Source of the DNA: an uncultured Chlamydiales bacterium
GTDB taxonomy: Bacteria > Chlamydiota > Chlamydiia > Chlamydiales > Rhabdochlamydiaceae
Assembly (NCBI GenBank): GCA_963700985.1
Contig: OY969554.1
Span: 320,001 to 384,000 of the forward strand
Direction: 5' to 3'
DNA length: 64,000 nucleotides
In this document: positions 3,882 to 28,212 of the stretch, one piece after another
Layout of the letters: every line of letters starts with the position of its first letter
Numbering within the stretch: the first letter of the stretch is position 1
Position numbers and translations under genes: made by a program
Notes under the pieces: model-generated
What the model saw: only the letters and a program-made list of their open reading frames with translations
Database searches by the model: none
What the model was told of the DNA's origin: nothing

Positions 3882-4361
3882 ATGAAAAAATTATTTACTT
3901 TGTTTGGCGTTCTATTTGCACTTTCTAGCCCAGCCTTTGCTGAGCAAACCCTTTCGATTATTAAGCCGGACGCGGTAGCAGCGAACCATATCGGTGCTAT
4001 CATAGAACGTTTTGAAAATAATGGTTTAAAGGTGGTGGCCGGCCGCATGACGAAGCTTTCTAAGAAACAAGCTGAAGATTTCTATGCCGTGCATAAGGAT
4101 CGCCCTTTCTATAAAGACCTAGTCAATTTCATGATTTCAGGCCCAATTTTTGTGCAGGTGCTAGAAGGCCCTGATGCTGTGGCAAAAAATCGCAAGATCA
4201 TGGGTGCAACCAATCCTAAAGATGCAGAAAAAGGCACTTTAAGAGCAGATTTTGCGACCAGTATGGAGAAGAATGCCGTGCATGGATCTGACAGCATTGA
4301 TAATGCCAAAAAAGAGATCGCATTCTTTTTCAAGTCGAGTGAGATCTACTCGCGTCCTTAA
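3882..4361 (+). CDS. ndk: Nucleoside diphosphate kinase with N-terminal signal peptide
   Basis: [25 protein letters not shown] (catalytic His), preceded by [20 protein letters not shown]. Confidence 0.95.
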
Positions 4362-6141
4362 CAGGGGTGCGTTCTTCAAAGAGAATGCTAGATGGAGCAT
4401 GATGCTTTGAAGAATTTTCGATATGCAGGAAGGGGGAGATGTCAATCTTTTGCCCTTCCTGAAATTTTTCAAGTAGCTCTTCTAAAGAGAAAATATTCAG
4501 GTGGCGGTTTGAAGAAGGGTTCACCAGATTAATTGGCAGATTGAGCGTGCGTGATCGGTTGAAAAAAAGACCGAGGCGTTTCTTTTTTCTTATTTTGTCC
4601 CAGCTAGCTTCAAGAGTATTGGGGTTCGTAAAACTGAGCGAGCGTAGATCTTTTTCTATGTCTGCTTTGCGATAGAGAACCATGTCGAGGCTGTTCGGAT
4701 AGTTCCAGTCGGCTTCGGCTTCTTTGAATTTCCAGCCATAAATATCTTTATCAACTGTTACATGCTTGGGGATTTTTTGAGCTTTATCTTGCATGAAGCA
4801 GTAGTTTAGATGCAGGCCATGCGCTAAGTAGAAGCCATAGGCTTTTGTCTTTTCTAGCGCCTGAATACACTGCTTAAAATCCACCGGATCTTTAACGATG
4901 ATGTCATCGACCGCAAATATAAGGTATGGGCAGGTGTTATCTGGGTTAAAAGCTGTTTCTAAAAGCAGCGGCTGAAAATCTGTGTGCGGGCTCGCGGATT
5001 GTTTAATAAAGCGGATAGATGGAAAAGCGCGAGCCAGTTGATCGTAGCTCGATGCAAATGAGCTATTGCTTGTTCGATAGATCACCGAAACTTGGTTGAG
5101 CCCCTGCATGAAGTTTCCAATAGACTCGAGCAGAGCGTAGAGTTGTAGCGGGCGATCAAAGGAGAAGATCACCAGATCAGCTTTTTCAAAGGCTTTTATT
5201 TGCTGCGGCAGCTTTTTTAGAGGCAGATAAGGATGTGCATCACGGATGGTATTTGCACATGCTTCTTGCAGAGAAAAATTGATCTTATGATCGTTCAAAG
5301 GATTGGTGCGGTTATACAAATAGAGCACGTCAGGGATAAAACACGAGTGCTTTCCAGATTGTTCTAATAGTGGGAACATCATGGCCAAATCGCCGGCCAT
5401 AGGATAAAAGCTGTCTTTGTAGAGCAGATCTTCTAGTTTAATTTGTTTGAAGAGCGATGCATAAAAAGTGCGTAGATGAGAAGAGATCCACGGTGCTTTG
5501 CGGTAACTATTATGTCGGATAATCGTATCTGAAATTTTCTTGCATTTGATGACCGACTGTTTATAACTCGGATAGTCTAAATAGTTGCCATAGGTCATCC
5601 AGACATCGCTTTTAGCATAAACCCGATTGAGCTTGGTAAGGACGCCTTCATGTGCAAGAAAATCATCGCCATCCAGCGCTATAACAATTTCATGATCGAG
5701 ACATGAGTGGATGGCATGATAGAAATTTGCGAGCGCGCCACGGTTCGTCTCATTGTGGATTAGCGTAAAGCGATCTTTTTTGCTGCTTTTTTCTACCAGG
5801 TCTTTGACTTTTGCAAAGGTGTCGTCTGTTGAGCAGTCGTCGATATAAATTACACGGAAATTTTCATATTTCTGTTCGAGTACGGAATGAATGTTTTTTT
5901 CACAAAATCCACTGTTGTTATACGAGGGGATAATGATGACAAAGGGCTTTTCTTCTTTGGCAAGCGCCGTTTTTAGATGTGAGGGGGCTTTTTTGTGAGC
6001 TTTGTAGTAGCGGAGGCCTTGCCATGTGGCAGCGGCAGCGATCAGTAAAGCCAGAAAACAAAGGATGAAGGATGACCTATAAACGCGAAAAAAGGCAGAG
6101 AAGTTACTTCTGCCTTTTTTTTCATTCTTCTGAGTCAGCAT
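4330..6141 (-). CDS. Membrane-anchored glycosyltransferase family 2 protein with a second GT-A-like domain
   Basis: N-terminal [23 protein letters not shown]. Second half has [13 protein letters not shown] and FAVDD. Confidence 0.8.
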
Positions 6142-9100: not shown

Positions 9101-10983
9101 GCGTCATAAATCTCTTGCTTAGCAACATTTCCATCAGCTGAATAGATAAGGTCCGTGCGCTTCAGGAGCTTCTCTTCATTGGTTTCTAAGTCGACATAGC
9201 GTTCTTCGATGCTATGGGGAAGACCAATGAATGGTTCCTCTGTTCGTGGGATTATCGCTTTTACCTTGCGGACGTTGACTCCAGTTAGATCGGCTTTGTC
9301 AAGAGAAGAACCATTGTCGCTAATTTCGCGCAGTAGGATGAGATCTTCATTATATTCGAAAAAGTCGCGTTGTCTAACTTTACCATTTTCGAGATGTAAT
9401 CTTGCTGTGACAAGATCCGAGTTAGGTAAATAGGAGAAGACGAGGCCCTGGCCATTATCTTCTTCTACTTTTAGCAGTAAATTGCGTCCGTCTTGTGAAT
9501 AAGTGTAACGTTTTGCATACCACTCGATGCCATTTTCTTCAGGGAGGCCTTGCGCATTTAATTTTAGCGCAGTTGAGCGTGTGCCGCTGAGGTTTCCATA
9601 AAATTTCTCAAGTGTAACGTTGCTGTTGTTGTCGTAAAAAAATCTACGGCTATAGACTGGATTGTTGTGCTGATCCAAGAAGGTGCGGCAGAGCAGGTTC
9701 GTGTCATTTTCCCAAATAAACTGCTCAGCGCTGAGAAGAGCAGAACCACGCTCTTTACTATCGTAATTTTCAATGGATTTGAGTCTTAAAGAGGGGGTGT
9801 ATCGATAGATTGTTTTGCTTCCATCGTTTTGATATACCTCAGTAATACCCGTCAGTTGTTTATTAGCCTGTGGTACAGTGTAAACAAAGGAGTGTGTAGT
9901 TGAGAGATTGCCATTGTCACCAATAGGAGCTAGCAGCTCCTTTACGCGGTAATATCTAGGATCAGATTTATTATTGAGAACGATATCCTGTCCATTTACA
10001 GAGTTATGGGTGGCTGCGTAATAATCGGCAGCAACCGCATTACCTGGAGTAAATCGGCGCTGAGTTACAAGAGGGCTGCTTGGTTTATAGGGATTAGAAT
10101 AGTCGATCTCATCTTCGGGAAACCCATCACATACCACTTGTTCGAGAATAAACGCGTCGGTGTTGCCTCGCTCATCTAGTTTGCGGAACTGGTATTGAAG
10201 TTTTTTAGCGTTGCTAGTCTCGATTTCTACGCTGCGGATCTGTTGCTGTTCTTCTTTATAGCTAAACTTAGCCCATGCATAGGTCTTTGTGCCACTTCCA
10301 TTCGTTGTTTTAATAGTGGCGATCTCATCATTTCGATCATATGAATAATGGATCATGTTTCCATGGGGTAGCTTTTCCCAAAGAAGATAGTAGTGCGTTG
10401 TGAGGAATTCTTTTTCTACGTGACTATGTTGGCCAGGGATTTTTCCATAGCAACGTTCTGTGCCATCGGCGGCAAAAACCTTTAACTCACTTTGATCTGC
10501 TGACAGTGAGACATGATTGTTTTTCAGGTTAGTGCGGCCAGAAATTTCTCCATGCGCTGAATTTGTTAGCCCTTTACCAAAAAGACTTACATTCAATGGC
10601 TTAAAGTTAGTCGTAACGGAATTTTTGATCTTCGCGTTACCTGCGGTAGAGTAGTATAAGGTTGCTCCTGTTGGTTCTGGAACATAGGCTGTGCCTCTGG
10701 CTCCGTGTACGAACGCATAAAGGTGAGGGTGCAAGGACCATTTGGCAAGTTTTCCTTTGCCATTGCCGCTGACATAGCTGCGTTTTAAGTGGATGGGTTC
10801 TTGTCCTTCGATGGTTAAATCTTCTTGTGAAATGAAAAAATCGCCTGTTAAGACGTTCACGCAGGAAGAGACAAAGGAAGAGGGATCTCCTTCAGTAACA
10901 GATAGTACGCTCGGCCGTTTTGTGGCACAGTTTCCATCGATCGCAAAGCCGAGGACGAGAGAGCAAGCAAGAAGAGTTCGCAT
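6142..10983 (-). CDS. RHS/YD-repeat protein with signal peptide and very short C-terminal extension
   Basis: DUF6531-like VNVLTGDF...LKRSY; many YD repeats; RHS core PWRFSSKRIDDEIGLAYFGMRYYDPETGHWLTPDP...NMYAFALNNPLVKVDLSGL. Confidence 0.9.
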   Translation of the reverse strand: MRTLLACSLVLGFAIDGNCATKRPSVLSVTEGDPSSFVSSCVNVLTGDFFISQEDLTIEGQEPIHLKRSYVSGNGKGKLAKWSLHPHLYAFVHGARGTAYVPEPTGATLYYSTAGNAKIKNSVTTNFKPLNVSLFGKGLTNSAHGEISGRTNLKNNHVSLSADQSELKVFAADGTERCYGKIPGQHSHVEKEFLTTHYYLLWEKLPHGNMIHYSYDRNDEIATIKTTNGSGTKTYAWAKFSYKEEQQQIRSVEIETSNAKKLQYQFRKLDERGNTDAFILEQVVCDGFPEDEIDYSNPYKPSSPLVTQRRFTPGNAVAADYYAATHNSVNGQDIVLNNKSDPRYYRVKELLAPIGDNGNLSTTHSFVYTVPQANKQLTGITEVYQNDGSKTIYRYTPSLRLKSIENYDSKERGSALLSAEQFIWENDTNLLCRTFLDQHNNPVYSRRFFYDNNSNVTLEKFYGNLSGTRSTALKLNAQGLPEENGIEWYAKRYTYSQDGRNLLLKVEEDNGQGLVFSYLPNSDLVTARLHLENGKVRQRDFFEYNEDLILLREISDNGSSLDKADLTGVNVRKVKAIIPRTEEPFIGLPHSIEERYVDLETNEEKLLKRTDLIYSADGNVAKQEIYDANNSLAYTLQTRYNSMGYPIEERNAFGKIAKSIFDANGNKILYQDFNGKGSKRLTYDFANRLAQVDEQNIDGTIKTTSYKYNLKGNKVATIDPQGNETHSVFDAAGHELATHYPAVLDLEGRLLHPTTYKQCDALGRVLSETNAKNETTSFSYTVRDKPFLIIHPDNGREKFIYSLDGTLKTHYDQEQNATHYTYDFAGRVTSKKIVSSTGGLLSEEHFVYDAFNLLAKTDAEGNTTTYAYDSAGRKIAEEIQGEKTLYTYDNLGRIASIEKGTQNVTQLTYKQYDFMDRVIEERVENGKGKLLSLIRFEYDNAGNTSAISRIIDGQEAKERFLFDAFNRLIQHTNALGDITKVEYDGHFLNDLGQIVTRKIVIDTLGNRTIETQDALGRLASIEKENAEGLPLSKEELFYDAAGNLARQVSTILSPELPPRMTETRWEYGPMKRLLTLTESYGSNDKRVTRYTYTHKGLVSQKIKPDGVIIHHTYDGLGRLVRVYSSDYSVDYSFTYDRNGRQTSTCDLKTQRITARELDAVGRILEESQENGLVLKNRYDTMGRRIETIFPDNSTVRYTYDALNMKKVIRNSKEGLLQYMHHFAKYDLSGNLLEERPIGGMGRVIYNFDVMGRKAALASRWGEQKVLSFDVAGNIEKMAWKTPRKDFDVEYQYDNLHQLTQEEGIFSHSYTYDSHQNRLSKDGFNYQVDPLKQLLSTPQTRYFYDPCGNLICKRTAQGEVYFRYDALDRLVEVTKPYAWRLAYTYDGWNRRQEKFSYAWKENDWNEQQRLSFLYDDTNEIGAADASGNLVQLRVLGRTTQADIGATVAIELGEEIYAPLHDLQGNISALLSFSSRTMVEQYRYTAFGEEKAVPYIPHISQPWRFSSKRIDDEIGLAYFGMRYYDPETGHWLTPDPHRYIDGPNMYAFALNNPLVKVDLSGLQAIAPVYRISVNGLVEAKSTSKAAGAKTEAEANVLPKLGVRPPLPRASGKPGK

Positions 10984-11025
10984 AAGCCCACCATTTGAAG
11001 AGTTGAGAAGTTGAAGTTACTAAAG

Positions 11026-11910
11026 TTAAAGATTCTCTGTAGTTTTTGGCAAGCATTCTCGATCACTTGAAAGATCAGAGAGAAGGTCGGGGTGATGTTT
11101 TTTTAGCCAACGGTGAAGGCGAGAAGTTAGACGTTCTACCTCTGCGCGCTGCCCTGAGGGCTCCTTTACTCTTTCATCTTTTAGAAATGAGCCCAGGTCT
11201 AATGCGATAGCTTTTTTATTTGATGCCCCGAAATTGCGTTTAAAAGAAGCGTCCGTATTTGTGATGCCTTTCTGGCACTGTTTATTAATTAAACGCATAA
11301 GCGAGCGGATCTGTTCTTTTGCGGCCGCAACTTCATTTTGCTGCATTCTTTTATCTATGGCTTCACAAAAAGGCTCAACATGTTCTTGCAATACGAACTC
11401 TGTGGCATCTAAATCGACCTCATGGCGAACGCCCAGCTTATCATAGATCGTTAAGCGTTGAAATGCCCCCTGCGTCTTATTCAAATGGAGATAGAGAAGA
11501 GCTGTCTCTTCTCTAAGTTCATCATATGCGAGCTTTGCGCTATCAAACAGCGGAGTTAAGTCATAGCGCGATTTACGTGCTAAAATGGAGTTTTTCAATT
11601 GGGTTGGAAGGGGAAGATAGCGTATGAGCTGCTTTGGGCTTAAGTGATCATGCCTGAAAAACTTGAGCACTGTTTTCTGATCGCTTCCTAGAAAAGCGTA
11701 AAACTGCTCGCCATTTCCTAAATAAAAGAAAGGCTGCGCTAAAAGCTGTTCTTTCATTGCAGCTGGCAGAGAAAGTGTTTCCCATCTTTCTCTATTGGGC
11801 ATCGCACTAACAATCTCATAGAGACGGAAGCCGGCCGTCTGCATATTACAGACCCAATTAGTAGCCCCAATCACAACTAGTGCAAAAACCACCTTGAAAA
11901 ATGTTCGCAA
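11026..11910 (-). CDS. Membrane-anchored protein-kinase-like fold protein (paralog K-A)
   Basis: YLGNGEQFYAF...VLKFF; EETALLYLHL; GITNTDASFKRN; LDLG. TTG start. Confidence 0.7.
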   Translation of the reverse strand: MRTFFKVVFALVVIGATNWVCNMQTAGFRLYEIVSAMPNRERWETLSLPAAMKEQLLAQPFFYLGNGEQFYAFLGSDQKTVLKFFRHDHLSPKQLIRYLPLPTQLKNSILARKSRYDLTPLFDSAKLAYDELREETALLYLHLNKTQGAFQRLTIYDKLGVRHEVDLDATEFVLQEHVEPFCEAIDKRMQQNEVAAAKEQIRSLMRLINKQCQKGITNTDASFKRNFGASNKKAIALDLGSFLKDERVKEPSGQRAEVERLTSRLHRWLKKHHPDLLSDLSSDRECLPKTTENL

Positions 11911-12014
11911 ACGGCACTTTCTCCAATAGGATACTGATCGTAACTCTCTTTGATACGATAAAAGTTGGTCAAATTATTAGCCACGCCTTTGAAATCTTAT
12001 TAGAGGGAGAAGCG

Positions 12015-12057
12015 TAATTTCATCAGCGTCTCTGCTCTTCTCTGCGCTGATGAAGTT
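12015..12057. repeat. Hairpin element ttcatcagcg...cgctgatgaa (possible terminator/REP-like)
   Basis: Stem aatttcatcagcg / cgctgatgaagtt directly after the K-B stop; related sequence at ~52390-52472. Confidence 0.5.
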
Positions 12058-12952
12058 ATCTCTCAGCTGTTTCTTGGGATAAGGCTTCGATCATTGTGTT
12101 GTAGTCGTGCCAAAGCTCGTGATCGCATTTGGCAAGTGAGCGGGAGAGACGCCAAGTTTTTTCTTTCACCTCTTTTTGCAGGTTTTGGCGTTGAGCTAGC
12201 GCAGGATCTTTTGAGAAAGAGCCAATATCGATTGCAACGGCTCGGCCATTGAGCAGGCCAGTGTTGCGACGAAATCCATTGTCATTATCTTTAATGCCTT
12301 TTTGGCAGCGAGAAGCGACGTTGTTAAGGATGGAAGCGATTGCTCGCTTGGCTTCTTCTTTTTTGCCGTCACGGATCATTTTTTTTACGGTAGCGTGGGC
12401 AAGCGAAGCGCGCTTTTGCAGCGCAAACTCTAAATTGTCTAGATCGACCTGATGCGAAATGCCCAATTTGTCGATGAGTGTGATGCTGCGCTTCCACTGG
12501 TTTGTTTTATTGAGTTGCATATACAAAAGGCCGGTTTCTTCGCGCAATTCATCAAAGGCGATTTTGCAGCTTTGGAAAAACTGCGCTTGATGTTTTTCGC
12601 GTGCCCGGATGAATGAAGTAGCAATTTCAGGGAGCGGAAGTGCTTTCAAACCAGAAAAATTATTCAAGTGGTGATGCTTGAAGAGTTTCAGCACGCTTTT
12701 TCCGTCTTGGCTTAAAAATGCGTAGGCCTGGCCCCCACTACCTAAAAAGGTAAAGGGCTGTGCCAGGATCTTTTGAACTGCGGCTAACTCAGGCGCTGAG
12801 AGGGGCGTGACGTCGCGATTTGGATCATAGGTGAGATTCGAAAGGATATTGCAGACCTTAAATCCTTCTGTTTTTTGATGACAGAAGCGCTCTGTAAAAC
12901 GAAAAGCCAAACAGAAGCAGAGCAGTTTAAACCAGAAAGAGAGGTGTTTCAT
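12056..12952 (-). CDS. Membrane-anchored protein-kinase-like fold protein (K-B)
   Basis: FLGSGGQAYAF...VLKLF; GIKDNDNGFRRN; IDIG. Confidence 0.7.
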   Translation of the reverse strand: MKHLSFWFKLLCFCLAFRFTERFCHQKTEGFKVCNILSNLTYDPNRDVTPLSAPELAAVQKILAQPFTFLGSGGQAYAFLSQDGKSVLKLFKHHHLNNFSGLKALPLPEIATSFIRAREKHQAQFFQSCKIAFDELREETGLLYMQLNKTNQWKRSITLIDKLGISHQVDLDNLEFALQKRASLAHATVKKMIRDGKKEEAKRAIASILNNVASRCQKGIKDNDNGFRRNTGLLNGRAVAIDIGSFSKDPALAQRQNLQKEVKEKTWRLSRSLAKCDHELWHDYNTMIEALSQETAER

Positions 12953-13836
12953 GAATTCTCAAGGATTTTGTTAAATTCTTCTTCAAATGCCACCAGAAGT
13001 TCGGGGAAGTGTTTTGTAAGCAGGCAGCGTAAAGGCAGCGTCTCGTAAAAGAGTTCGCGTTTGTAGGTTTGGGGGTGCTTTAAAAATACATTTTTAGAGA
13101 ATGAACCCACATCGATTACAATCGCATGCTCTTTCAAAAATCCAAAATTCTTGCATAGAGTTGGATCTCGATCTGCAATCCCTTTTTTGCAGCGCTCAAC
13201 AATTAGGGACATTAGAGCTGAGATCTGTTTTCTTGCAGCTTCTGCATCGCCATTTTCTAAACTACGTTCTAAAGAAGGCATAAGCAGATCAGCGCGTTTT
13301 TGAACCATGAACTGCACCTCGTCTAAAGCCACTTTATGCTTTAGGCCTAACTTGTCGATAAGAGTGATAACAGGAAGTTGTTTGGTGGTTTTGCTCAAGT
13401 GTAAATAGAGCAGGCCGGTCTCTGCTTTTAATTCTTCGTAGGCAATTTTACAGCTGGCAAAGGTGCTTGTTAAACGCTCTTCTTTTTCGCGTTTTAGTTT
13501 TTCAAGATTTGCGAGGGGCAAGATCTTGGCAATTAGTTGTGCTTGGCGGATGTGATGGTGTTTAAAAACTTTTAATACGATCTGCTTGTCTTGGCTGAGG
13601 AATGCATAGCACTCGAGACCGCTATCTAAAAAGGTAAAAGGCTGAGAAAGGAGCGTTTGCAACTCAATTGAGGGGAGATCTGCTGGAGTATTCACGAATG
13701 CCGTTTCAGAATAGATATTCGGCAAGCTAAAGCCACGCGTTTGTTTGTGACAAAAGCGTTCTAAGGCAAAAAAGATGCCGATACCGATAAATAGTTTAAT
13801 TACGCTCGAGGATAGTTTGAATCTCATGTGCCACAT
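12949..13836 (-). CDS. Membrane-anchored protein-kinase-like fold protein (K-C); start may be 13827
   Basis: FLDSGLECYAF...VLKVF; GIADRDPTLCKN; IDVG. Confidence 0.7.
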   Translation of the reverse strand: MWHMRFKLSSSVIKLFIGIGIFFALERFCHKQTRGFSLPNIYSETAFVNTPADLPSIELQTLLSQPFTFLDSGLECYAFLSQDKQIVLKVFKHHHIRQAQLIAKILPLANLEKLKREKEERLTSTFASCKIAYEELKAETGLLYLHLSKTTKQLPVITLIDKLGLKHKVALDEVQFMVQKRADLLMPSLERSLENGDAEAARKQISALMSLIVERCKKGIADRDPTLCKNFGFLKEHAIVIDVGSFSKNVFLKHPQTYKRELFYETLPLRCLLTKHFPELLVAFEEEFNKILENS

Positions 13837-14680
13837 AATCTGAAAATTCTGGGATGCGATTTGCAGCCCAGCGTTGCATTTTGAACAGCTCCTTGCGCAT
13901 CTCTCTATATTTGTGCTTTGGTTTTCTTACTGATTTTATTTTTTTGTAAGATCCTACATCGATTTCAATAGCTTCTGTGCCAGTAAACCCGATATTGCGA
14001 TCAAAGCGCAGGTCGTGATTCGAGATCTCTTTCTCACAACGCGTGGCTATTAGTTTGATAAGGGAGCTTAAACACTGCTCCATCTCTTGGCGCGCGCCTG
14101 CTTTCATAAGCAGGTCGATCTTTTCAGGCAGCATCTCTACTCTTTTTTGGAGTATGAAAGCTGTCTGATCAGCATTGATCTGATGCTCGATGCCCAACTT
14201 ATCAACCAGCGTAATCGTGCGCTTTAAAGAATGCGTTGGCTGTAAATGTGTGCCGAGCATGCCAGTTTCATTCTTAAATTCGTGTTCAGCGATTTCGCAG
14301 CTTGTGAAAATCGAGTTTAATCGCTTGGTGCGTCTTTCCGCTAATGATGTGCGCCAGTTTTCAAGAGAGGCAGGAAGGGGGAATGTTTTTAAAATCCCTT
14401 TGATGGGGAAATTGTGGTAATGCTTAAAAACCTTAAGCACAGTCTGTTCATCTTGGCCTAAAAAAGCATAGCATTGGACGCCACTGCCCAAAAATGTGAA
14501 GCGCTGGTCTAAGAGTTTGCCAAACGAGGGGTTTTCGTTATGGGGATATGTAGGTTGAAAAACAAAATCAGAATGCAGCTTATCTAAGCGGAAGCCAGCT
14601 GTCTGATAACGGCAAAAACGTTCAACCGCAAAGATTGCGAGCAGCGAACAAACAATTGTAAATGTTTTTTTAAAGCGCAT
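13796..14680 (-). CDS. Membrane-anchored protein-kinase-like fold protein (K-D)
   Basis: FLGSGVQCYAF...VLKVF; EISNHDLRFDRN; IDVG. Confidence 0.7.
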   Translation of the reverse strand: MRFKKTFTIVCSLLAIFAVERFCRYQTAGFRLDKLHSDFVFQPTYPHNENPSFGKLLDQRFTFLGSGVQCYAFLGQDEQTVLKVFKHYHNFPIKGILKTFPLPASLENWRTSLAERRTKRLNSIFTSCEIAEHEFKNETGMLGTHLQPTHSLKRTITLVDKLGIEHQINADQTAFILQKRVEMLPEKIDLLMKAGARQEMEQCLSSLIKLIATRCEKEISNHDLRFDRNIGFTGTEAIEIDVGSYKKIKSVRKPKHKYREMRKELFKMQRWAANRIPEFSDYVAHEIQTILERN

Positions 14681-15548
14681 GCGGACATTGTATCTCTTCT
14701 TCTAAGAAGAGGGCAAGTCCGGCTTCACGCATAGCCAGCCAATCCCTCAGGCTTTGGGTGATTTTTCGGATTTCTGCTAGAGCAAGCGCGCTGGGTTTTG
14801 CATCAATATTTTTTGAAAATGGTCCTAAATCTAGAAAAATAGCTTTACCCTCGATGAAACCGATGTTAGTACGAATCAGCGGATCTCGGTCACTTAGCTC
14901 TTTATTCAGGCGGCTCTGCAGCAGGGCAAGCAAAGAAGAGATTCCTTGTTGAGCAGATAAAATATCGCCTTTTTGAAGCCACTCTTCAAACTGAGGATAG
15001 GCTAGTGTTGCCCTTTTTTGGAGGATGAAACCCATATTATCGAGATCAACTGCATGTGCAATTCCTAATTTGTCGATCACAGTGACTTTTTTGCGAAGAT
15101 GTTGTGTTGTATTTAGGTGAAGAAAGAGCAGGCCGGTCTCTTCACGTAGATCGGAAAATGAGAGTTCATAGCTTTGCGCGGTCATCTGCATTTTTCTCTG
15201 GAAATATGAGAGCCTTTCTTTTTGCCAAGCAAAGGTTGGAAGCCACTCAAGCATTTGAATGCGTTTTTGATAGTGGTTATTTAATAGTTTAAGCACTGTT
15301 TTTCCATCTCGTGAGAGAAAGACAAAGCTCTGCTTGCCGCGTGCAAGATAGGTAAAGGGCTGGTCTAAAATTTCTAGCGCTTGTTTTTCTAGCTTCGTTG
15401 AGCAGATTTGTTGAACATTAAAAGTGTTGTCCTGGATTTTTGAAATGCGGAAGCCATCGGTCGCTTTGTGGCAGAAGCGGCTGATACCAATCGCAAGCAG
15501 AGCCAAGCTTAAGAGTTTAACAATTCTCTTTTTAATTATTTTCTTCAT
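14670..15548 (-). CDS. Membrane-anchored protein-kinase-like fold protein (K-E)
   Basis: YLARGKQSFVF...VLKLL; ELSDRDPLIRTN; LDLG. Confidence 0.7.
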   Translation of the reverse strand: MKKIIKKRIVKLLSLALLAIGISRFCHKATDGFRISKIQDNTFNVQQICSTKLEKQALEILDQPFTYLARGKQSFVFLSRDGKTVLKLLNNHYQKRIQMLEWLPTFAWQKERLSYFQRKMQMTAQSYELSFSDLREETGLLFLHLNTTQHLRKKVTVIDKLGIAHAVDLDNMGFILQKRATLAYPQFEEWLQKGDILSAQQGISSLLALLQSRLNKELSDRDPLIRTNIGFIEGKAIFLDLGPFSKNIDAKPSALALAEIRKITQSLRDWLAMREAGLALFLEEEIQCPHAL

Positions 15549-16408
15549 TGAGAGGTCACCAGAGAATCGAGATGTTTAATTAAAAGAGGAGATGTCGAGG
15601 GATCTTCATTGGCAAGCCAGCTCCTCAGACGCGCTGTGATGGCAATGAGATCGCGCTCATAAACATCAGGCTGCTTGCGCGCGCTATCGCGTTTAAATCG
15701 GCCTACGTCGACAAAAATGGGCTCATCACCCACAAACCCTAAGTTTTTATGCAGGCGTGGATCCTCATCAAAAATTCCCAGTTGGCAGCGTTTGCGCAGA
15801 AGTGAGACGGTCTTTTCAAGTGTGGCTTTAGCTGCATCCATTTGATCATTATTAATCTGCCGTTGAAGGTAAGGAAGTAGCATTTCGGCTTTGGCTTGCA
15901 GAATGAAAGCAGTTTTATCGAGGTCGATAGCGTGAGCAATTCCCAACTTATCGACAATCGTGAGTTTTGTGCCAATAGTATTAGTTTCAGTTAAATGAAG
16001 ATGAATGAGCCCGGTTTCTTGTTTTAGCTCATTAAAAGCGAGTAGATAACTATTCAGATCTCGCTGCCATCCTTTTTCAACTCTAGCCACTCTTTTTGCT
16101 GCAGCTTTTTTGAGAAAAGAGGGGAGATGCCAGTCTAAAAGAAAAGCAGGCGTAATGCCTCGGCTCATTAGCTTGAGCACATATTTTCCATCCTGGGAAA
16201 CGAAAGCGAAGCACTGACCTCCGTGACCCAAAAAATAGAACTTCTGATTCAAGATTTTTTTGTCAAAGTTGCATGGCTCATGGCCTTTTGGAAGCGCAAA
16301 TGTGATGCGGGCAATTGAAAACCCCGCTGTCTTTTTTGTGCAAAAGTGACGCAAAGGAATGATTGTCGCGCCTAAAATGAGATAAACTAAGATTAGCTTT
16401 CTGTTCAC
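15545..16408 (-). CDS. Membrane-anchored protein-kinase-like fold protein (K-F)
   Basis: FLGHGGQCFAF...VLKLM; GIFDEDPRLHKN; VDVG. GTG start overlaps the K-G stop. Confidence 0.7.
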   Translation of the reverse strand: MNRKLILVYLILGATIIPLRHFCTKKTAGFSIARITFALPKGHEPCNFDKKILNQKFYFLGHGGQCFAFVSQDGKYVLKLMSRGITPAFLLDWHLPSFLKKAAAKRVARVEKGWQRDLNSYLLAFNELKQETGLIHLHLTETNTIGTKLTIVDKLGIAHAIDLDKTAFILQAKAEMLLPYLQRQINNDQMDAAKATLEKTVSLLRKRCQLGIFDEDPRLHKNLGFVGDEPIFVDVGRFKRDSARKQPDVYERDLIAITARLRSWLANEDPSTSPLLIKHLDSLVTSQ

Positions 16409-17256
16409 AGTGCACTCGCATTGTTCATAGCATTTTCAAAAAACGGCAAAAGCTCAGGGTCTTCAGCTCCCAGCCATTTTTTAAGCGCACCAGCTTTTAT
16501 TTTAGGCTCGTCTTCAGGCTTTTTTTTAGCCAAGCTGCCACAGTCGATAAGAACGGCTTGATCGCCAATAAATCCAAAGTTTTTTGTCAGATGTGAATCT
16601 CGATCGTAGATTCCTTTTTGATCAAGCGTATGCAAGAGCTTAGCTAACGATTCAAGAAGAGTCTTTTTTTCTTGCTGCGCCATGAGCGTGGGAAGCACCA
16701 GATTTGCGCGCTTTTGTAAAACAAATTCAAGCCTGTCTGCATCCAAACGATGTTGAATATTCAAGCGATCTACCAGTGTAAGGCGGCAGTTTAAATCAGA
16801 GGATTTATTGAGATGGAGGAAAATTAAACCACTCTCATCTCTAACTTCATCGAAGGCTAGTTTGTAACTTTGAAATAATTTCGTGAGCTCTGCTTGCTTT
16901 TTTCCCTGCTTTGCAACTCTCCAATCATCTAATCCATGCGGCAAGGGAATAGCATCCAAAAAGGGCGGCAGACGAAGATGTTGAAACTTAAAAAACTTAA
17001 GCACGTATTTTCCATCTGGCGAAGCAAATACGTAGCTCTGAGCGCCTTTGCCCAGATAGTAAAAAGGTTTGGCTAAAATTGTGCGGATTTCGTCTTTTTC
17101 AACTTGGTTCAGCGCAGCTGTATCCCATACCGCCTGCGGTTCAAGTGCTGAGCGGATATTTGCCACCTCAAAGCCATCCGTAACTCTGTGGCAAAGCCTT
17201 TCAGCTGCAATAACTGCTATGATAAAAATAAGAAGAAGAAAAAGCCGTTTATACAT
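16405..17256 (-). CDS. Membrane-anchored protein-kinase-like fold protein (K-G); ORF extends to 17271
   Basis: YLGKGAQSYVF...VLKFF; GIYDRDSHLTKN; IDCG. Confidence 0.7.
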   Translation of the reverse strand: MYKRLFLLLIFIIAVIAAERLCHRVTDGFEVANIRSALEPQAVWDTAALNQVEKDEIRTILAKPFYYLGKGAQSYVFASPDGKYVLKFFKFQHLRLPPFLDAIPLPHGLDDWRVAKQGKKQAELTKLFQSYKLAFDEVRDESGLIFLHLNKSSDLNCRLTLVDRLNIQHRLDADRLEFVLQKRANLVLPTLMAQQEKKTLLESLAKLLHTLDQKGIYDRDSHLTKNFGFIGDQAVLIDCGSLAKKKPEDEPKIKAGALKKWLGAEDPELLPFFENAMNNASAL

Positions 17257-17304
17257 CTGTCCGCGTGTCAAAAGCGATTAAGCGATTAGATTATGAGGCT
17301 GATA

Positions 17305-17373
17305 CAAAATTCACTACCAGTAAATTTTCTTTATCAATTAGTATAATTTTTTTTGATGCTGGAGGAAAAAATC
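17305..17373 (+). promoter_or_regulatory. Divergent promoter region between K-G and P2 (TATAAT 17342-17347, GGAGG RBS)
   Basis: Consensus -10 hexamer and RBS; homologous to 21245-21313. Confidence 0.5.
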
Positions 17374-18726
17374 ATGGCACACAAAAAGTTGATTGGAAGT
17401 TTTGTTTTCTTTTCTTGTCTGCTGTCACCTAATTTGAAACTCTTTTCTCAGGCAGGCATTAGCCTCTATGTGACAGATCAAACAAACATACAGCTAGTGG
17501 TTATTGATACAGACACCTTTGCTATAACCGCTACCATTCCTCTTATTTCTCAACCGGGTGCAGGAGGCCCTAACGGAGTCGCGATTACTCCGGATAACAA
17601 GTTCGCTTATGTAGGTACCGTTCCATTAACTTCAACTCCTATTCCGGGCGTCAATGCTGTAAATTTGTCTACCGCAGTTGTTACCGAAATCCAGATCGAT
17701 GATGGAAATACTGGCCAAGGTGTGGCCATAACTCCTGATGGTACTATGGCTTATGTTACTAATGGCAGTAGTAAGGTTTTCCCTATAGATGTTGCCACAA
17801 ACGTAGCTGGATCTGGTATTACGGTCGGAGGTGATCCTGATAGCATTGCAATTCAGCCTGTAGGGGCGCCAATTCAAGCCTATGTGGCTAATTTTAGTGA
17901 TCAAAATATTTCTGTAATCAACACAGCAACGAATGCGGTTATAGCTACTATTACTCTTCCGGCTGGCAGTTTGCCAACCAGCGTGGCAATCACCCCCACC
18001 GGTTTATTCACCTACGTTGGTGTTCTTGATAACACTGATGTTTCTGTGATCAGCACAACTTCGAATACTATATCTGCTACTGTGGATTTAGGAGCTTTCG
18101 CGGACGCTATAACTATAGCAAATGTACCAAATCCACCCTCCTCTCCTGATGTCCCTGGTATATTCGCGTATGCTTACATCTTCGGTTCTCAGACAGTTAA
18201 TGTGATCGATACGAGCACAAATACAATAGTTGGGACCATTAATCTTCCCGAATCGTCTACTACAGCTTTTATGGCTTCTACCCCTGATGGAACACAAGTT
18301 TTTCTGGTAGATAACAGTAATAATGTCATTGAAATCGATACTGCTACAAATACAGCTACGGTGGCGCTTGCACTCCCTGGCACCGCAGGCGGTATTGCAA
18401 TGGGTCCCGTGCCGCCAATTCCACCACCACCCAACCCGAAACCTCTACCACCTTCTAATCTCACAGGTGAGCTGCGCAAGGTGATTTTCGCCACACAAAC
18501 AGAGTACATTCACAAGCTGCAGTGGACCCCCAGCACTGACACGACTGTCGTTGATTATCTTGTTTTCCGCAACGGCATCCAGATCGCCGTGATTAGTGCC
18601 TCTGGACCATTTGAGTATAACGACCAGAATCGCCATAAAAATGAGAGCGACGTTTACACATTAGTGAGTGTAAATGCATTAGGTGTGCAGAGCGACCCCA
18701 TCACACTTAATTTCAACGGGAAGTAA
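17374..18726 (+). CDS. Secreted YVTN beta-propeller protein with conserved C-terminal tail (P2)
   Basis: ATG after GGAGG; signal peptide ...NLKLFSQAGISLY; propeller blades; 92-aa tail. Confidence 0.85.
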   Translation: MAHKKLIGSFVFFSCLLSPNLKLFSQAGISLYVTDQTNIQLVVIDTDTFAITATIPLISQPGAGGPNGVAITPDNKFAYVGTVPLTSTPIPGVNAVNLSTAVVTEIQIDDGNTGQGVAITPDGTMAYVTNGSSKVFPIDVATNVAGSGITVGGDPDSIAIQPVGAPIQAYVANFSDQNISVINTATNAVIATITLPAGSLPTSVAITPTGLFTYVGVLDNTDVSVISTTSNTISATVDLGAFADAITIANVPNPPSSPDVPGIFAYAYIFGSQTVNVIDTSTNTIVGTINLPESSTTAFMASTPDGTQVFLVDNSNNVIEIDTATNTATVALALPGTAGGIAMGPVPPIPPPPNPKPLPPSNLTGELRKVIFATQTEYIHKLQWTPSTDTTVVDYLVFRNGIQIAVISASGPFEYNDQNRHKNESDVYTLVSVNALGVQSDPITLNFNGK

Positions 18727-18739
18727 TTTAAGTCTAAAA

Positions 18740-18830
18740 CAGAACAGGATAGATAGGATCAGGCAGGATATGAAAGATCGAATAGAGAAAATATCCTGCA
18801 TATCCTGTAAATGATTTACCGAAAAGGTTC
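18740..18830. repeat. CAGGAT/ATCCTG palindromic dispersed repeat, copy 1
   Basis: acaggatagataggatcaggcaggat...atcctgcatatcctgtaaatgatttac. Confidence 0.7.
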
Positions 18831-18860
18831 GATCTTACCTACTTAACTTTAATGGATGGT

Positions 18861-20189
18861 ATGGCTCATAAAAAATGGATTGGAAATTTTGTTTTTTTAT
18901 CTTGTCTGCTGACGCCTAACTGGAATCTTTTTTCTCAGGCAGGCATTAGCCTCTACCTGACAGATGAAAGCCATCAGCAAATGTACGTGATAGACACGGA
19001 AACCTTTGCTATAACGGCTACGATTCCCCTAACGAATCCTGGGCCTCGAGGCTTAGCCATTAATGCAGATAATACATTTGCTTATGTAGGTGTTAGCCCT
19101 GGCGTAAACCTTGTAAACCTAACCACTCAGCAAGCTGAGTCTGTAATTTTTATAGGTGGTGCTGCTGGCCAAGATGCAGCTATAACACCCGACGGCACTA
19201 CTGTTTATGTTCCAGATGGTAGCATGTCTGTTTGGGTGATTGATACGGCTACGAATGTGTCTACAGCTTCTATTGGGACCGGAAGTCAGCCCAGTTTTGT
19301 TGCAATTCAACCTGTTGCACCATTCCAGGCGTATGTTTCCAATTTTGGTTCTGGTACTGTTACTGTAATCGACACAAATACGATGAGTTTTGTAACTAAT
19401 ATTGTAGTTGGGACTAGTTCTAGTGATCCTTCCGGTATAGCCGCCACTCCTAACATTCCTAGCACTCCTAACGGTTTGTTTGCCTATGTTGGCTTTGATA
19501 GTGGCGATACGATCACTGTGATTGACGCTGGCACGAATACCATCTCATCTACTGTGACTGTAGGATCTGTTCCTTTAGATGTTACCATAGCAAATGTGCC
19601 GAGTCCCCCTTCTCCCTTATCTCCTGGTGCATATGCTTATACTGCCAACTCAAACGCAGGCACTGTTTCTGTTATAAATGCAGCCGCTTCTCCACCGGTA
19701 ACGGTAACAACGCTTACCCCTCCTAATGCGAACGCGCTACAGTTTATTGCTGCGACTCCTGACGGAAAACAGGTGTTTGTGATTGATGGTCATAGTGATA
19801 TCTCGGTAATCGATACTTCTACAAATGAAGCTACTTTGGTAGTTACAATAATTGACTCTATCCCAGGTGGTGTGGCAATGGGTAATGTGCTGCCAAACCC
19901 GCAGCCTCAGCCGCCTTCTAATCTCACTGGGCAGCTGCGCAAGGTGATCTTTGCCACTCAAACAGAATATATCCACAAGCTGCAGTGGAGCCCTAGCACT
20001 GACACGACCGTGGTCAATTACATTCTTTTCCGCAATGGCAGCCAGATCGCGGTGATCAGCGCCTCTGGGCCATTTGAGTATAACGACCAGAACCGCCATA
20101 AAAATGAGAGCGACGTTTACACATTAGTGAGCGTGAACGCATCAGGCGCGCAAAGCACACCCATCACCTTAAACTTCAACGGGAAGTAA
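18861..20189 (+). CDS. Secreted YVTN beta-propeller protein with conserved C-terminal tail (P3)
   Basis: MAHKKWIGNFVFLSCLLTPNWNLFSQAGISLY; propeller blades; 92-aa tail. Confidence 0.85.
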   Translation: MAHKKWIGNFVFLSCLLTPNWNLFSQAGISLYLTDESHQQMYVIDTETFAITATIPLTNPGPRGLAINADNTFAYVGVSPGVNLVNLTTQQAESVIFIGGAAGQDAAITPDGTTVYVPDGSMSVWVIDTATNVSTASIGTGSQPSFVAIQPVAPFQAYVSNFGSGTVTVIDTNTMSFVTNIVVGTSSSDPSGIAATPNIPSTPNGLFAYVGFDSGDTITVIDAGTNTISSTVTVGSVPLDVTIANVPSPPSPLSPGAYAYTANSNAGTVSVINAAASPPVTVTTLTPPNANALQFIAATPDGKQVFVIDGHSDISVIDTSTNEATLVVTIIDSIPGGVAMGNVLPNPQPQPPSNLTGQLRKVIFATQTEYIHKLQWSPSTDTTVVNYILFRNGSQIAVISASGPFEYNDQNRHKNESDVYTLVSVNASGAQSTPITLNFNGK

Positions 20190-20202
20190 TTTAATTCTAA
20201 AG

Positions 20203-20312
20203 CAGAACAAGATGTAGAGAGGATCAGGCAGGATATAAAGGATGGAAGAAATATCCTGCATATCCTGTCGCTTGCGATCATGCACATCCTGTAAATGATT
20301 TACCGAAAGAGC
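20203..20312. repeat. CAGGAT/ATCCTG palindromic dispersed repeat, copy 2
   Basis: Same architecture as 18740-18830, ending atcctgtaaatgatttac. Confidence 0.7.
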
Positions 20313-20332
20313 TTGGTCTTATCTACTTAACT

Positions 20333-21223
20333 TTAAGGGATAGCTTGGATCTGTTGGTCTAAGTAGCTAGCGAGTTCAGGTTGACGCATCTGTAGCCACT
20401 GTTTGAAGTGGTCTGTGATGCGCAGCACTTCATGTTGAAAAGGCTCATTTTTCTTATTTGATTCACCCTTCTTAAAACGGCCGATATCGAATTGAATTGG
20501 CTCTGCATCGATTAAGCCAAAGTTAGTCTTAAGATCCGGATCTTTATCGGTGAGACCGGCATCGTGTCTTTTGGCGAGTAGATGGAGAAGTCCTACGAGC
20601 GCACTTTTAGCTTTTTCTATCTGATTCGTTTGAATCATCTCTTCAATTGCCGCGTAAAAAGGTTTCGCTCTCTTTTGCAGAATGAATTCCATCTGATCTA
20701 AATCGAGTGTGTGGGTGATTTTCCCCTTGTCAGTGATCTGGATCTTTTGCCTTAGATTATCACTTTTAGTGAGATGCAGATAGATCAAGCCCGTCTCTTC
20801 TTTTAGATGCTGAAAAGCAAATTGGTAGCTGGAGAAATCTTTTTCGCGCTTGCTTTCTTTGATCGCAATTTTTTGCTGCCGCCATTGCTCAAGTGAAGAG
20901 GGGAGGGGAAGGTTTTTTAGCCACCTCGGAGCTTCGATATGACTTACCCGAAAAAATTTGATCACATATAGCTGATCTTGCGAGACAAATACGTAACACT
21001 GTGCACCTTTGCCTAAATAAGTGAAAGGTTGTGCCAAAATTGTGCGCAGGCCCCCATCTTGCTTAAAATGAGCAGGAGACTCCCAACGCGCGTCATATGC
21101 AAGGCGGGAAGAGATCTTGTTTAGAGCAAAACCATCCGTCTGTTTATAGCAGAAATGCTTAAGCCCAAAAAAAACGCCCACAACCAGAGTTAACCACCCC
21201 GCTTGCTGATAAATTTTCTTCAT
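20333..21223 (-). CDS. Membrane-anchored protein-kinase-like fold protein (K-H); ORF extends to 21247
   Basis: YLGKGAQCYVF...VIKFF; EETGLIYLHL; GLTDKDPDLKTN; FDIG. Confidence 0.7.
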   Translation of the reverse strand: MKKIYQQAGWLTLVVGVFFGLKHFCYKQTDGFALNKISSRLAYDARWESPAHFKQDGGLRTILAQPFTYLGKGAQCYVFVSQDQLYVIKFFRVSHIEAPRWLKNLPLPSSLEQWRQQKIAIKESKREKDFSSYQFAFQHLKEETGLIYLHLTKSDNLRQKIQITDKGKITHTLDLDQMEFILQKRAKPFYAAIEEMIQTNQIEKAKSALVGLLHLLAKRHDAGLTDKDPDLKTNFGLIDAEPIQFDIGRFKKGESNKKNEPFQHEVLRITDHFKQWLQMRQPELASYLDQQIQAIP

Positions 21224-21313
21224 GCTGAGGATTATCATGCCGTGCAAAATTCCCTTCCACTAGATTTTCTTTTTGTGTAATTTATAATTTTTTTTTATAA
21301 ATGGAAAAAACTT

Positions 21314-22642: not shown

Positions 22643-22656
22643 TCTTGAGTCTAAAA

Positions 22657-22765
22657 GAGAACAGGATATACAGGATCAGGCAGGATATGAAGGATAGGAT
22701 TGAGAAAATATCTTGCGTATCCTGTCGTTTACGATCCTACATATCCTGTAAATGATTTACCAAAA
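22657..22765. repeat. CAGGAT/ATCCTG palindromic dispersed repeat, copy 3
   Basis: acaggatatacaggatcaggcaggat...atcctgtaaatgatttac. Confidence 0.7.
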
Positions 22766-22769
22766 AAGT

Positions 22770-22860
22770 AGTGACCCCATCACACTTGTCTTCACTAGGA
22801 AATTTTCTTCATGCCCAGGATTATCATGCCGCGCAAAATTCCCTTCCACTAGATTTTTCT
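22770..22860. pseudogene. Deletion scar: propeller 3' end remnant fused to a copy of the kinase start/promoter region
   Basis: 22770-22802 encodes SDPITLVFTRK (cf. SDPITLNFNGK); 22800-22860 nearly duplicates 21211-21270. Confidence 0.65.
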
Positions 22861-23789: not shown

Positions 23790-24620
23790 TTAGCGGAGGA
23801 TGATTTCTCGATCGACAGAGTTGTAAGCTCCGGAAACGGGCTTGTTTCTCTGATCGATCAGCTGCAGATGGATTTTATGAGTGCCTTTTTTGAGACCATA
23901 GATGTAATAGGGGATCCAGCTGGTTATGACGCGTTCTTTTTTGCCGTCGATAGAGAGTTCTACTTTATAGCCGTCACGTGAGAGTTGGCAGTTTGTGATG
24001 TAGAAGTCGAGTAAAATAGGCTCAGTTGGGCTGTAATCATAATCGCCCTGAGGTTCATTGTAGGTGAGGTAGGGAGCCGAAAGATCCACGCCATGTAATG
24101 GTTCCTTGTCCTGGAAATAGAAGGTGCCAGAGACAAAGCAGCCATCGCCTTTAAGGCTCTCATTGTAAGAGCGCACAGGGAAAATGCGAATCGTGTGTGC
24201 ACCGGGCTTTAGTTTAAAAGGAAGATCAAAATCTAATGATTGATCGAAGTAGTTCTCATTGTCGTCTAAGGCCATAATGAAAGACTCATTGATCTCAAAG
24301 TAGGGACGATCGTCGATGACGATATGAAGAGCTTGTCCAACCGGATCGTTAAAGATCTCTTTTCTTCTAGGAAAATCGCTGTCTGTGCCTATTGGATAGC
24401 CCTGGATGCGCAGTTCCATGTTGACTGGGTTTGAGTTCTTAACATCACCTTCTTTAGGGAAGACTATGAAAAGCTCCACATTATCAGATTCAGGCGTTGG
24501 GTTGACCGGTACGACACGGATCTCTCCGGGATTGGCCTTATGAGGCTTTATATCCGCAGCAGAGGCCGCATTCGAAGATAGCACCAGAAGAGAACAGAGA
24601 CCCAGTAGACCAAATCGCAT
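23790..24620 (-). CDS. Secreted hypothetical protein (beta-rich, two Ig-like halves predicted)
   Basis: Signal peptide, GGAGG RBS, 276-aa ORF. Confidence 0.7.
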   Translation of the reverse strand: MRFGLLGLCSLLVLSSNAASAADIKPHKANPGEIRVVPVNPTPESDNVELFIVFPKEGDVKNSNPVNMELRIQGYPIGTDSDFPRRKEIFNDPVGQALHIVIDDRPYFEINESFIMALDDNENYFDQSLDFDLPFKLKPGAHTIRIFPVRSYNESLKGDGCFVSGTFYFQDKEPLHGVDLSAPYLTYNEPQGDYDYSPTEPILLDFYITNCQLSRDGYKVELSIDGKKERVITSWIPYYIYGLKKGTHKIHLQLIDQRNKPVSGAYNSVDREIILR

Positions 24621-28020: not shown

Positions 28021-28212
28021 CTACTGGCGCTTCTTTTTTTTTGCGGCAGGCTTGATCGGGACTAACTTGTATCGATAAGGTGGCTTGATCTCCACGACCT
28101 TGCCATTTCGAGTAAAAACAAGAGCAGTACCAGTGCGAACCGCAGTTTCAAAAGCTCTTTGAAAACTGCGCTCATGGGCCTTTAATATTTTTTCATTAAA
28201 ATCATCGCTCAT
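28021..28212 (-). CDS. Small basic hypothetical protein, partner of the zeta-like ATPase
   Basis: MSDDFNEKILKAHERSFQRAFETAVRTGTALVFTRNGKVVEIKP; overlaps the ATPase stop. Confidence 0.6.
   Translation of the reverse strand: MSDDFNEKILKAHERSFQRAFETAVRTGTALVFTRNGKVVEIKPPYRYKLVPIKPAAKKKKRQ

Follow-up and report, generated by a model that had tools for sequence, protein, structure and literature searches.

An ordered array of eight membrane-anchored proteins with a predicted protein-kinase-like fold in a Rhabdochlamydiaceae genome, and their relatives in most chlamydial families

Introduction

The described systems closest to the proteins reported here belong to the superfamily of proteins resembling protein kinases (protein-kinase-like, PKL) and include the Hanks-type kinases, AceK, the RIO/Bud32 proteins, the ABC1/UbiB/COQ8 group and the enzymes WaaY, WaaP/Kdo, WbdD and YrbL, which face the cytoplasm. 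In PKA, the catalytic Asp and the metal-binding Asn and Asp are D166, N171 and D184, respectively. The chemistry of the superfamily extends to ATPase activity in UbiB and AceK and to nucleotidyl transfer in SelO and SidJ. Roles for residues K461 and D477 of AceK are given in the accessible text of two studies (PMC3747045; PMC6591243), and Pkn1, PknD and Pkn5 are the kinases named in the accessible part of the chlamydial pangenome paper (PMC8242063). In the present study, we analyzed an array of eight genes located at positions 11026–21223, on the minus strand, of a 64,000-nt stretch of DNA (hereafter, the window; contig OY969554.1, positions 320,001–384,000, assembly GCA_963700985.1) from an uncultured Chlamydiales bacterium of the Rhabdochlamydiaceae, a family occurring, according to the accessible text of PMC9723776, mostly in soil and freshwater, with described members that are arthropod-associated.

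Results

The open reading frames of the array encode eight proteins of 287–298 aa that align over their full length with a pairwise identity of 30–40% and share the invariant columns C, T-x-G-F, G, K, S, E, Q, D, N and D-x-G. They carry the ordered motifs of the initial annotation, where eight diverged paralogs of approximately 290 aa with a common order of motifs were described. Paralog 1 was folded with AlphaFold2 using a 124-sequence alignment, and the other seven paralogs align with it from end to end. The model (predicted local distance difference test, pLDDT, 94.7; predicted template modeling score, pTM, 0.90) consists of an N-terminal helix (residues 2–29), a β-sheet lobe in which strands 67–72 and 76–81 enclose the Gly-rich loop and strand 86–91 corresponds to β3, a long helix (109–139), an inserted hairpin (160–174) and a short helical lobe; after D246 only 50 residues remain, forming one strand and three helices. 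The best Foldseek matches were Rio2, WbdD, Myt1/Wee1, AceK and an ABC1 kinase (E from 2e-4 to 4e-4, template modeling (TM) score 0.3–0.4), and the 50 listed rows of the VIA structure search were kinase-fold chains, headed by AceK (Z 11.2, root mean square deviation (rmsd) 4.0, 190 residues aligned) and followed by others at Z 8.8–10.2. PINK1 and PRPK/Bud32 (PRPK Z 10.4 in a second search) were also among the best fold matches. The search of viral structures gave only generic kinase matches, and folds of the CotH/Fam20 type were not among the rows listed in the structure searches, which other kinases fill. The fold is almost certainly protein-kinase-like, in line with what had been proposed from the motifs alone, and the model is distant from every solved kinase-like structure.

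Conservation of the active site was assessed in 317 sequences (77 from the loci plus search matches of 250–350 aa, duplicates removed) numbered by paralog 1. G73, K89, Q183, N234 and D246 are invariant in this set, D228 is kept in 313 sequences and the D-x5-N spacing in 315. All four residues K89, D228, N234 and D246 are present in 313/317 sequences of this set and in 222 of the 228 locus-derived sequences, at an overall identity of 25–40%. The register agrees with D457/N462/D475 of AceK, with one residue inserted in the loop, and a forced alignment with WaaY gives the same register; the structural matches and the sequence register together indicate that the catalytic residues should cluster in space. 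The bilobal fold, the Gly-rich loop with the β3 Lys and the catalytic Asp/Asn/Asp set of the PKL superfamily are thus found in the model and the alignment. The catalytic loop reads [D/N]-x-D-P-x4-N, with an invariant Gln in the Gly loop and another in the hinge; at the places of K461 and D477 of AceK, most sequences have Thr or Arg (position 233) and Gly is found (position 248). The stretch from the catalytic Asp to the Asn contains no conserved Lys. The insert after β3 is basic, with a mean net charge of +6.

The D-x5-N and D-x-G motifs of the initial annotation therefore hold across the family, and its view that all eight copies are catalytically intact agrees with the retention, in each window paralog, of the β3 Lys, the catalytic Asp, the Asn and the metal-binding Asp; the enzymes are very probably active with ATP, as predicted from these residues. 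Two details had to be changed. The Gly-loop pattern that had been given for all copies fits six of the eight paralogs, and the remaining two deviate from it (D-S-G-x-E and A-R-G-x-Q). The Glu of the "ETG" motif, which had been taken for the αC Glu, is E143 (274/317), located past the long helix and three residues before the next strand, and the register at which kinases carry the αC Glu is occupied by S132 (311/317); on the model and the alignment, the ETG Glu is probably not the αC Glu.

The first gene, paralog 1 (orthogroup A; 20333..21223; 296 aa), which is also the first array gene in the relatives, may start at an alternative, longer TTG codon at 21247. The following six genes, namely paralogs 2 (U; 16405..17271; 288 aa), 3 (R; 15545..16408; 287 aa), 4 (B; 14670..15548; 292 aa), 5 (L; 13796..14680; 294 aa), 6 (W; 12949..13836; 295 aa) and 7 (G; 12056..12952; 298 aa), form a chain in which neighbours overlap at five junctions, by 4, 4, 11, 41 (counted from the first ATG of paralog 6) and 4 bases, the 4-base ones being GTGA between paralogs 2 and 3 and ATGA at the starts of paralogs 4 and 7, as had been noted from the letters. 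Paralog 8 (S; 11026..11910; 294 aa) is located at the end. The description of these genes as one array is correct as to their presence, but the continuity is broken by 3,061 bases with two opposite-strand β-propeller genes after the first gene and by a 145-base gap before the last one. Since contigs from a separate metagenome run cover 12070–18112 (115 other letters and one gap, approximately 2% of the letters) and 6950–11899, and so span most of the array, the array is real rather than an assembly artefact. A scan for promoters and terminators gave no signal above that of shuffled sequences, and the search for an RNA holder listed none.

Two further, very diverged members of the family, both solitary and on long branches, are located elsewhere in the 2.07-Mb genome (G000:C1:822896-823771, plus strand, and 1644266-1645159, minus strand); the former has Arg in the column of the catalytic Asp and may, judged by this substitution, be a pseudokinase.

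A profile survey of Chlamydiota, with at most eight candidates scored per genome and copy numbers consequently being floors, detected the family in 220 of 300 genomes, which supports the earlier surmise of a chlamydial family. It was present in 58/61 genomes of Rhabdochlamydiaceae and, among the other chlamydial families (denoted here f3, f4, f6, f7 and f9), in 32/32 genomes of f6, 47/47 of f7 and 24/26 of f9; none of the 29 small genomes of f4, which are probably Chlamydiaceae, matched the family profile. Two short, weak pieces obtained with a more diverse profile on five matchless genomes (three of f4) were rejected. The full profile search yielded at least 2,546 cluster representatives (clusters at 50% identity), and the named matches were nearly all hypothetical proteins of chlamydiae; among the best 120–150 matches per protein search, one (P0010) was labelled by its source as belonging to another phylum. 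A search for loci with a single protein found only close relatives.

The array was compared in 27 Rhabdochlamydiaceae loci, i.e., the window and 26 relatives, where its size had a median of seven genes and a range of one to nine, some arrays being cut by the fetched stretch. Rhabdochlamydia-like genomes (genus g2) carry a single copy, with a gene 93% identical to that of Candidatus Rhabdochlamydia. The array occupies one chromosomal place, flanked in most loci by an exported immunoglobulin (Ig)-like protein and, at its opposite end, by Vut_1/TGT. Two congeneric genomes have the gene orders A U D R B L W G S and A D R B L W G S, to which the order A U R B L W G S of the window corresponds; the window has lost one member, that of group D. 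Same-position orthologs are 49–63% identical in 15 of 16 comparisons (in the remaining one the gene is missing), and other paralogs do not exceed 42%; trees join each window paralog with the same-position gene of the two same-genus genomes. A quick tree and FastTree were used here, with some orthogroups split or misjoined and the two most divergent loci falling in group F. In four other families, two tandem pairs, or part of them, are found at the corresponding place, and in f6 and its neighbours there are single genes beside fabI. Judged from these sequence comparisons, the array is a set of orthologs that is old and kept in order, rather than a local expansion.

The orthogroups are told apart best by columns 230, 93, 74, 272, 94, 249, 232, 96, 129, 244, 72 and 233. 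Of the 15 most subfamily-specific columns, 11 lie within five residues of G73, K89, D228, N234 or D246, compared with a background of 27 of 200 variable columns, in a count that was made on related sequences and with a threshold picked after the ranking had been seen. Such divergence around the active site suggests different acceptors, as the initial annotation had envisaged; with fixed catalytic residues and subfamily-specific surroundings, the same chemistry on different acceptors would be expected.

Library searches provided no name for the family. Pfam gave no kinase family, either for the eight proteins of the window or for 124 members, and in particular no RIO1, Kdo/WaaP/WaaY or Pkinase match; NCBIfam gave none for 41 members; PHROGs and PADLOC contained no convincing family match; and no solved structure was matched by sequence, two weak isomerase matches (E 0.2) being rejected. 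Searches of plasmid and phage sequences found no family match, and a search among longer proteins, which is weak evidence, found no fused forms. A literature search listed no paper describing the family, which may nevertheless appear in the supplements of surveys devoted to kinase-like families of bacteria or to chlamydial proteomes. Comparison by hhalign with the single E. coli proteins WaaY, WaaP, YrbL, AceK and UbiB was not significant (AceK E 0.15, WaaY and WaaP E 0.06 and 0.38). Weak signals were obtained in the opposite direction, where the family profile scored the AceK kinase domain at 7.8 bits versus a maximum of 2.6 in 200 shuffles and placed WaaY above 199 of 200 shuffles. The family is an uncatalogued, family-level variant of a known kinase fold, in accordance with its earlier description as uncharacterized, and the defining features of the Hanks-type, AceK, RIO, Kdo/WaaP/WaaY and ABC1 families were not found in it.

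Every copy has a basic N-terminus, an uncharged hydrophobic stretch mostly of 14–16 residues, a conserved Cys (Cys25, 79% of 317) and T-x-G-F. The net charge is higher on the N side of this anchor in 157 of 224 sequences, equal in 35 and lower in 32. A loose small-x-small pattern follows the hydrophobic stretch in 81 of the 224, without a clear cleavage site. In orthogroup N, which is found in the relatives, six of seven members end the hydrophobic stretch, by eye, in x-[G/S/A]-Cys (three by a strict pattern), with the lipobox Cys at about the place of Cys25 and in a manner resembling the OppA lipoproteins of the same loci. The fact that a lipoprotein signal precedes a homologous domain speaks for the export of the whole family, and from these N-termini the kinase domain would rather be placed outside the cytoplasm than inside.

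Usable ATP is commonly assumed to be missing from the Gram-negative periplasm. Two full TLC nucleotide translocases are encoded in the genome of the window, and TLC translocases import host nucleotides, which must cross the periplasm; this weakens the objection that there is no ATP outside. The window also encodes a nucleoside diphosphate kinase (NDK) with a signal-peptide-like N-terminus (3882..4361, plus strand), in addition to a second ndk gene without one at G000:C1:1205211, and NDKs beside the array had a signal-peptide-like start in all seven loci that carry them (the window and six others). In the accessible text of PMC13318545, Ndk2 of Waddlia carries a signal peptide and reaches host compartments, and a second ndk is reported only for Parachlamydiaceae, Waddliaceae and Criblamydiaceae, a range that the NDK of the window extends. 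Uridine-kinase genes (PF00485) with a signal-peptide-like start were found in 8/8 cases in the relatives' loci and in 14/14 strong matches among 41 Rhabdochlamydiaceae genomes.

These uridine-kinase genes (L048:3432-4136, L052:17297-18052, and in L056, L057, L059, L061, L079, L084 and L103–L116) may merit a record of their own, an exported uridine kinase being unexpected.

Other genes around the array were examined in the window and in the relatives' loci. Nucleoside salvage and transport genes occur near the arrays, namely TGT, Vut_1, thymidine kinase, uridine kinase, NDK and PiT; neither phosphatase or sensor genes near the array nor lipopolysaccharide (LPS)-core (waa-type) genes flanking it were found. 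A conserved upstream neighbour, a protein with two Ig-like domains and a signal peptide (23790..24620, minus strand), has no Pfam family above the cut-off, adjoins the array in 30 of 61 loci and was matched in 142 of 301 genomes, restricted to some families. It was not found in 32/32 genomes of f6 and 18/18 of f3, all of which carry the kinase genes, and because it is missing from several kinase-bearing families it is not an obligate partner. Its model (pLDDT 87.5) gave a generic best structural match (Z 8.9), and by Atlas features it is near DUF4399/DUF6130. Downstream of the array, on the same strand, lies a gene for a GT2 glycosyltransferase with an N-terminal hydrophobic anchor (4330..6141), and directly upstream of the latter is that of an RHS-repeat protein of 1613 aa (6142-10983, minus strand), whose start is signal-like and whose C-terminal tail is very short, at a site shared by only two loci. 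A role as dedicated kinase partners was considered for the Ig-like protein, the GT2 and the RHS gene and was rejected, as they do not co-occur with the kinase genes. A 731-aa protein without a Pfam match (25781-27976, plus strand) is conserved next to the array in 31 of 61 loci, and a 195-aa Zeta-toxin/AAA_33-like P-loop ATPase (28202-28789, minus strand) is encoded between it and the YqgE/AlgH and MlaD genes. In f7, the neighbour of the kinase gene has no Pfam match.

The two secreted YncE-like β-propeller genes inside the array (17353–18726 and 18852–20189, plus strand) are a lineage-specific insertion and not part of the kinase system. They belong to a set of four paralogs in the window, together with 21314–22642 (plus strand) and 639–1958 (minus strand), which share a C-terminal domain with a DNA identity of 76–85%; two more propellers are encoded elsewhere in the genome, and the insertion in and around the array is confined to the lineage of the window. 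An intergenic repeat of 70–140 bases with internal inverted symmetry is located 3' of each plus-strand propeller gene (18728–18850, 20191–20334 and 22645–22769); it was found in 35 blastn pieces across the genome and resembles an element of the REP/MITE type. In addition, 58 bases over the start of paralog 1 (21211–21268) are duplicated with 95% identity at 22800–22857, beyond the third propeller gene, and this duplication is likely a scar of the insertion of that gene.

Discussion

The observed genes, with the predicted fold of one copy, conserved catalytic residues, fixed-order orthology and divergence around the active site, are tentatively interpreted here as those of chlamydia-wide, periplasm-facing anchored kinases that would phosphorylate small molecules or glycans with ATP derived from the host. 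The eight genes would encode subfunctionalized, ATP-dependent phosphotransferases whose protein-kinase-like fold is minimal. An uncleaved N-terminal signal anchor (or a lipid anchor in one subfamily of the relatives) would hold each of them at the inner membrane, with the catalytic domain most likely on the periplasmic side and supplied by host ATP crossing the periplasm toward the ATP/ADP translocases. Each paralog would phosphorylate its own hydroxyl acceptor, and small molecules or envelope glycans and lipids appear to be likelier targets than proteins. The proteins have neither a sensor nor a regulatory domain; it is because of this, and because no phosphatase nearby and no conserved catalytic-loop Lys were found, the C-lobe is minimal, the insert is basic, the gene order is operon-like and salvage genes are close by, that non-protein acceptors are somewhat preferred.

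Several observations weigh against this interpretation. The anchor is hardly asymmetric when Lys and Arg are counted (2.4 versus 2.1), the strict lipobox pattern was met in only 4 of 224 sequences and in none of the eight window proteins, where the conserved Cys follows R-F, R-L, H-F or W-V, and signal peptides were judged by eye and hydropathy without a cytoplasmic control set. No conserved covarying Cys pair was found in the 317 sequences, and thus no disulfide supports a periplasmic location. The genome of the window gave no uridine kinase match. The canonical αC Glu appears to be replaced by Ser, and the enrichment of specific columns near the active site carries the reservations given with the count. 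As to the acceptors, the best fold matches (AceK, Rio2, PRPK/Bud32 and PINK1) are cytoplasmic protein kinases, minimal C-lobes are found in protein kinases too, and the GT2 gene is beside the array in only 10 of the 27 Rhabdochlamydiaceae loci. Finally, there is no neighbour common to the whole phylum, the kinase genes of other families adjoining fabI, OppA/MFS or unrelated genes.

The weak charge asymmetry of the anchor leads to the first alternative, an unlikely one, in which the anchored kinases face the cytoplasm and act on lipid-linked or envelope precursors at the inner leaflet, like WbdD, WaaY and KdkA. ATP is plentiful on that side of the membrane, WbdD was the second Foldseek match, the named Atlas clusters that come closest are WaaY and YrbL (scores 0.86–0.87, to be read as leads only), the family profile prefers WaaY to nearly all of its shuffles, and fabI and Mla genes are among the neighbours. 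The lipoprotein-type signal in six of seven members of orthogroup N is, however, hard to reconcile with a cytoplasmic domain; moreover, the net charge favours the N-in orientation in 157/224 sequences, and no LPS-core genes stand beside the array.

If the domains lie outside, as we prefer to think, their substrates could still be proteins. Periplasmic or surface protein kinases acting on chlamydial envelope proteins, each paralog with its own targets, by analogy with the CotH and secretory-pathway kinases, are distinctly unlikely in our estimate. The best structural neighbours are protein kinases, the AceK domain scored above all 200 shuffles, the subfamily-specific residues of the catalytic loop recall the differences between Ser/Thr and Tyr kinases, and in three families no neighbour is more constant than the exported Ig-like protein. 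Against this stand the lack of a conserved catalytic-loop Lys such as K461 of AceK, of a phosphatase or sensor nearby, and of the Ig-like neighbour itself in f6 and f3.

The coupled genes also admit a homo- or heteromeric membrane complex (a heteromer had been suggested in the initial annotation), with kinase-fold subunits engaged in other ATP chemistry (ATPase or nucleotidyl transfer) and perhaps linked through the Cys after the anchor. Translational coupling of six genes, the fixed order, the tandem pairs in other families, the unpaired Cys25 and the unusual active site, with Ser at the αC register, D-x5-N and an invariant Gln in both the Gly loop and the hinge, are in favour of such a complex, which is nevertheless improbable, given that subfamily sets differ between genera and that every array subunit retains the complete kinase set, without dedicated dead subunits; an obligate complex of several paralogs is unlikely because single-copy relatives exist. 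Effector kinases that reach the inclusion or the host cell by way of Sec and type II secretion or of vesicles are quite improbable, since the export-type N-termini, the lineage-dependent copy number and the precedent of Ndk2 in Waddlia (PMC13318545, accessible text) are set against the unclear cleavage site, the missing plasmid or phage matches and a stable chromosomal position with fixed orthologs, unlike the fast turnover of effector arrays.

A broader form of the preferred interpretation, that of periplasm-facing anchored kinases, is doubtful and can be put forward only as a conjecture: most environmental chlamydiae might run a periplasmic phosphorylation fuelled by host ATP, in which the anchored kinases, the exported NDK and the uridine kinase act on host metabolites or envelope glycans, for example by turning nucleosides and sugars into phosphorylated forms imported by chlamydial carriers, with five to nine members in most Rhabdochlamydiaceae, one in Rhabdochlamydia and none left in the vertebrate pathogens with small genomes. 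Such a loss would also mark a difference between protist-associated and vertebrate-associated chlamydiae, and, if the domains do face the periplasm, chlamydiae that parasitize nucleotides would form an exception, with an entire phosphorylation chemistry exported. Independently of this, the family is a large branch of the kinase superfamily that is uncatalogued and has an unusual active site. It is present in most chlamydial families and annotated only as hypothetical, and since it occurs in the cultured Protochlamydia (P. amoebophila, WP_044045460.1) and Neochlamydia as well, it can be tested at the bench.

Comparison with known systems

Among the chlamydial kinases, Pkn1, PknD and Pkn5 share the superfamily fold and the phylum with the family described here. 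The latter differs from Hanks-type Pkn proteins, as had been concluded from its motifs, by the lack of a Pkinase match, of HRD-L-K-x-x-N, of an APE motif or activation segment and of a large C-lobe, with only the 50 residues after D246, and none of the 29 small genomes that are probably Chlamydiaceae gave a match to it.

The ABC1/UbiB/COQ8 proteins (PDB 7cz2; Foldseek rank 7) resemble the family in the Gln after the nucleotide-binding loop, in the D-P of the catalytic loop of many members and in membrane association, whereas the chlamydial proteins lack the K-x-G-Q extension, have a Gly-rich rather than Ala-rich loop, show no profile similarity and are much shorter. WaaY, WaaP/Kdo, WbdD and YrbL are likewise small bacterial envelope enzymes with a kinase fold, and WaaY has a similar G-x-x-x-x-D-P catalytic loop; however, the profile similarity is not significant, the chlamydial array is not accompanied by an LPS-core operon, and the LPS and O-antigen kinases have D-x4-N. 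With RIO/Bud32/PRPK (PDB 1zao, 1tqi, 7szc, 4ww5) the family shares the minimal C-lobe without an activation segment, Rio2 being the first Foldseek match (E 1.9e-4, TM 0.33), but it has no RIO1 Pfam match among 124 members and no winged helix, and it has a membrane anchor and another spacing of the catalytic loop.

The best structural match is AceK (PDB 3eps, 6k5l; Z 11.2, rmsd 4.0–4.1, 190–195 residues aligned, 12% identity), in which N-F-G follows the catalytic Asn as it does in the chlamydial family and in which the αC helix, by eye, is also without Glu at the matching register. AceK possesses an N-terminal regulatory domain, D-x4-N, K461 and D-Y-D with D477, whereas the chlamydial proteins have no such domain, a D-x5-N spacing, D-x-G, an N-terminal membrane anchor and many paralogs.

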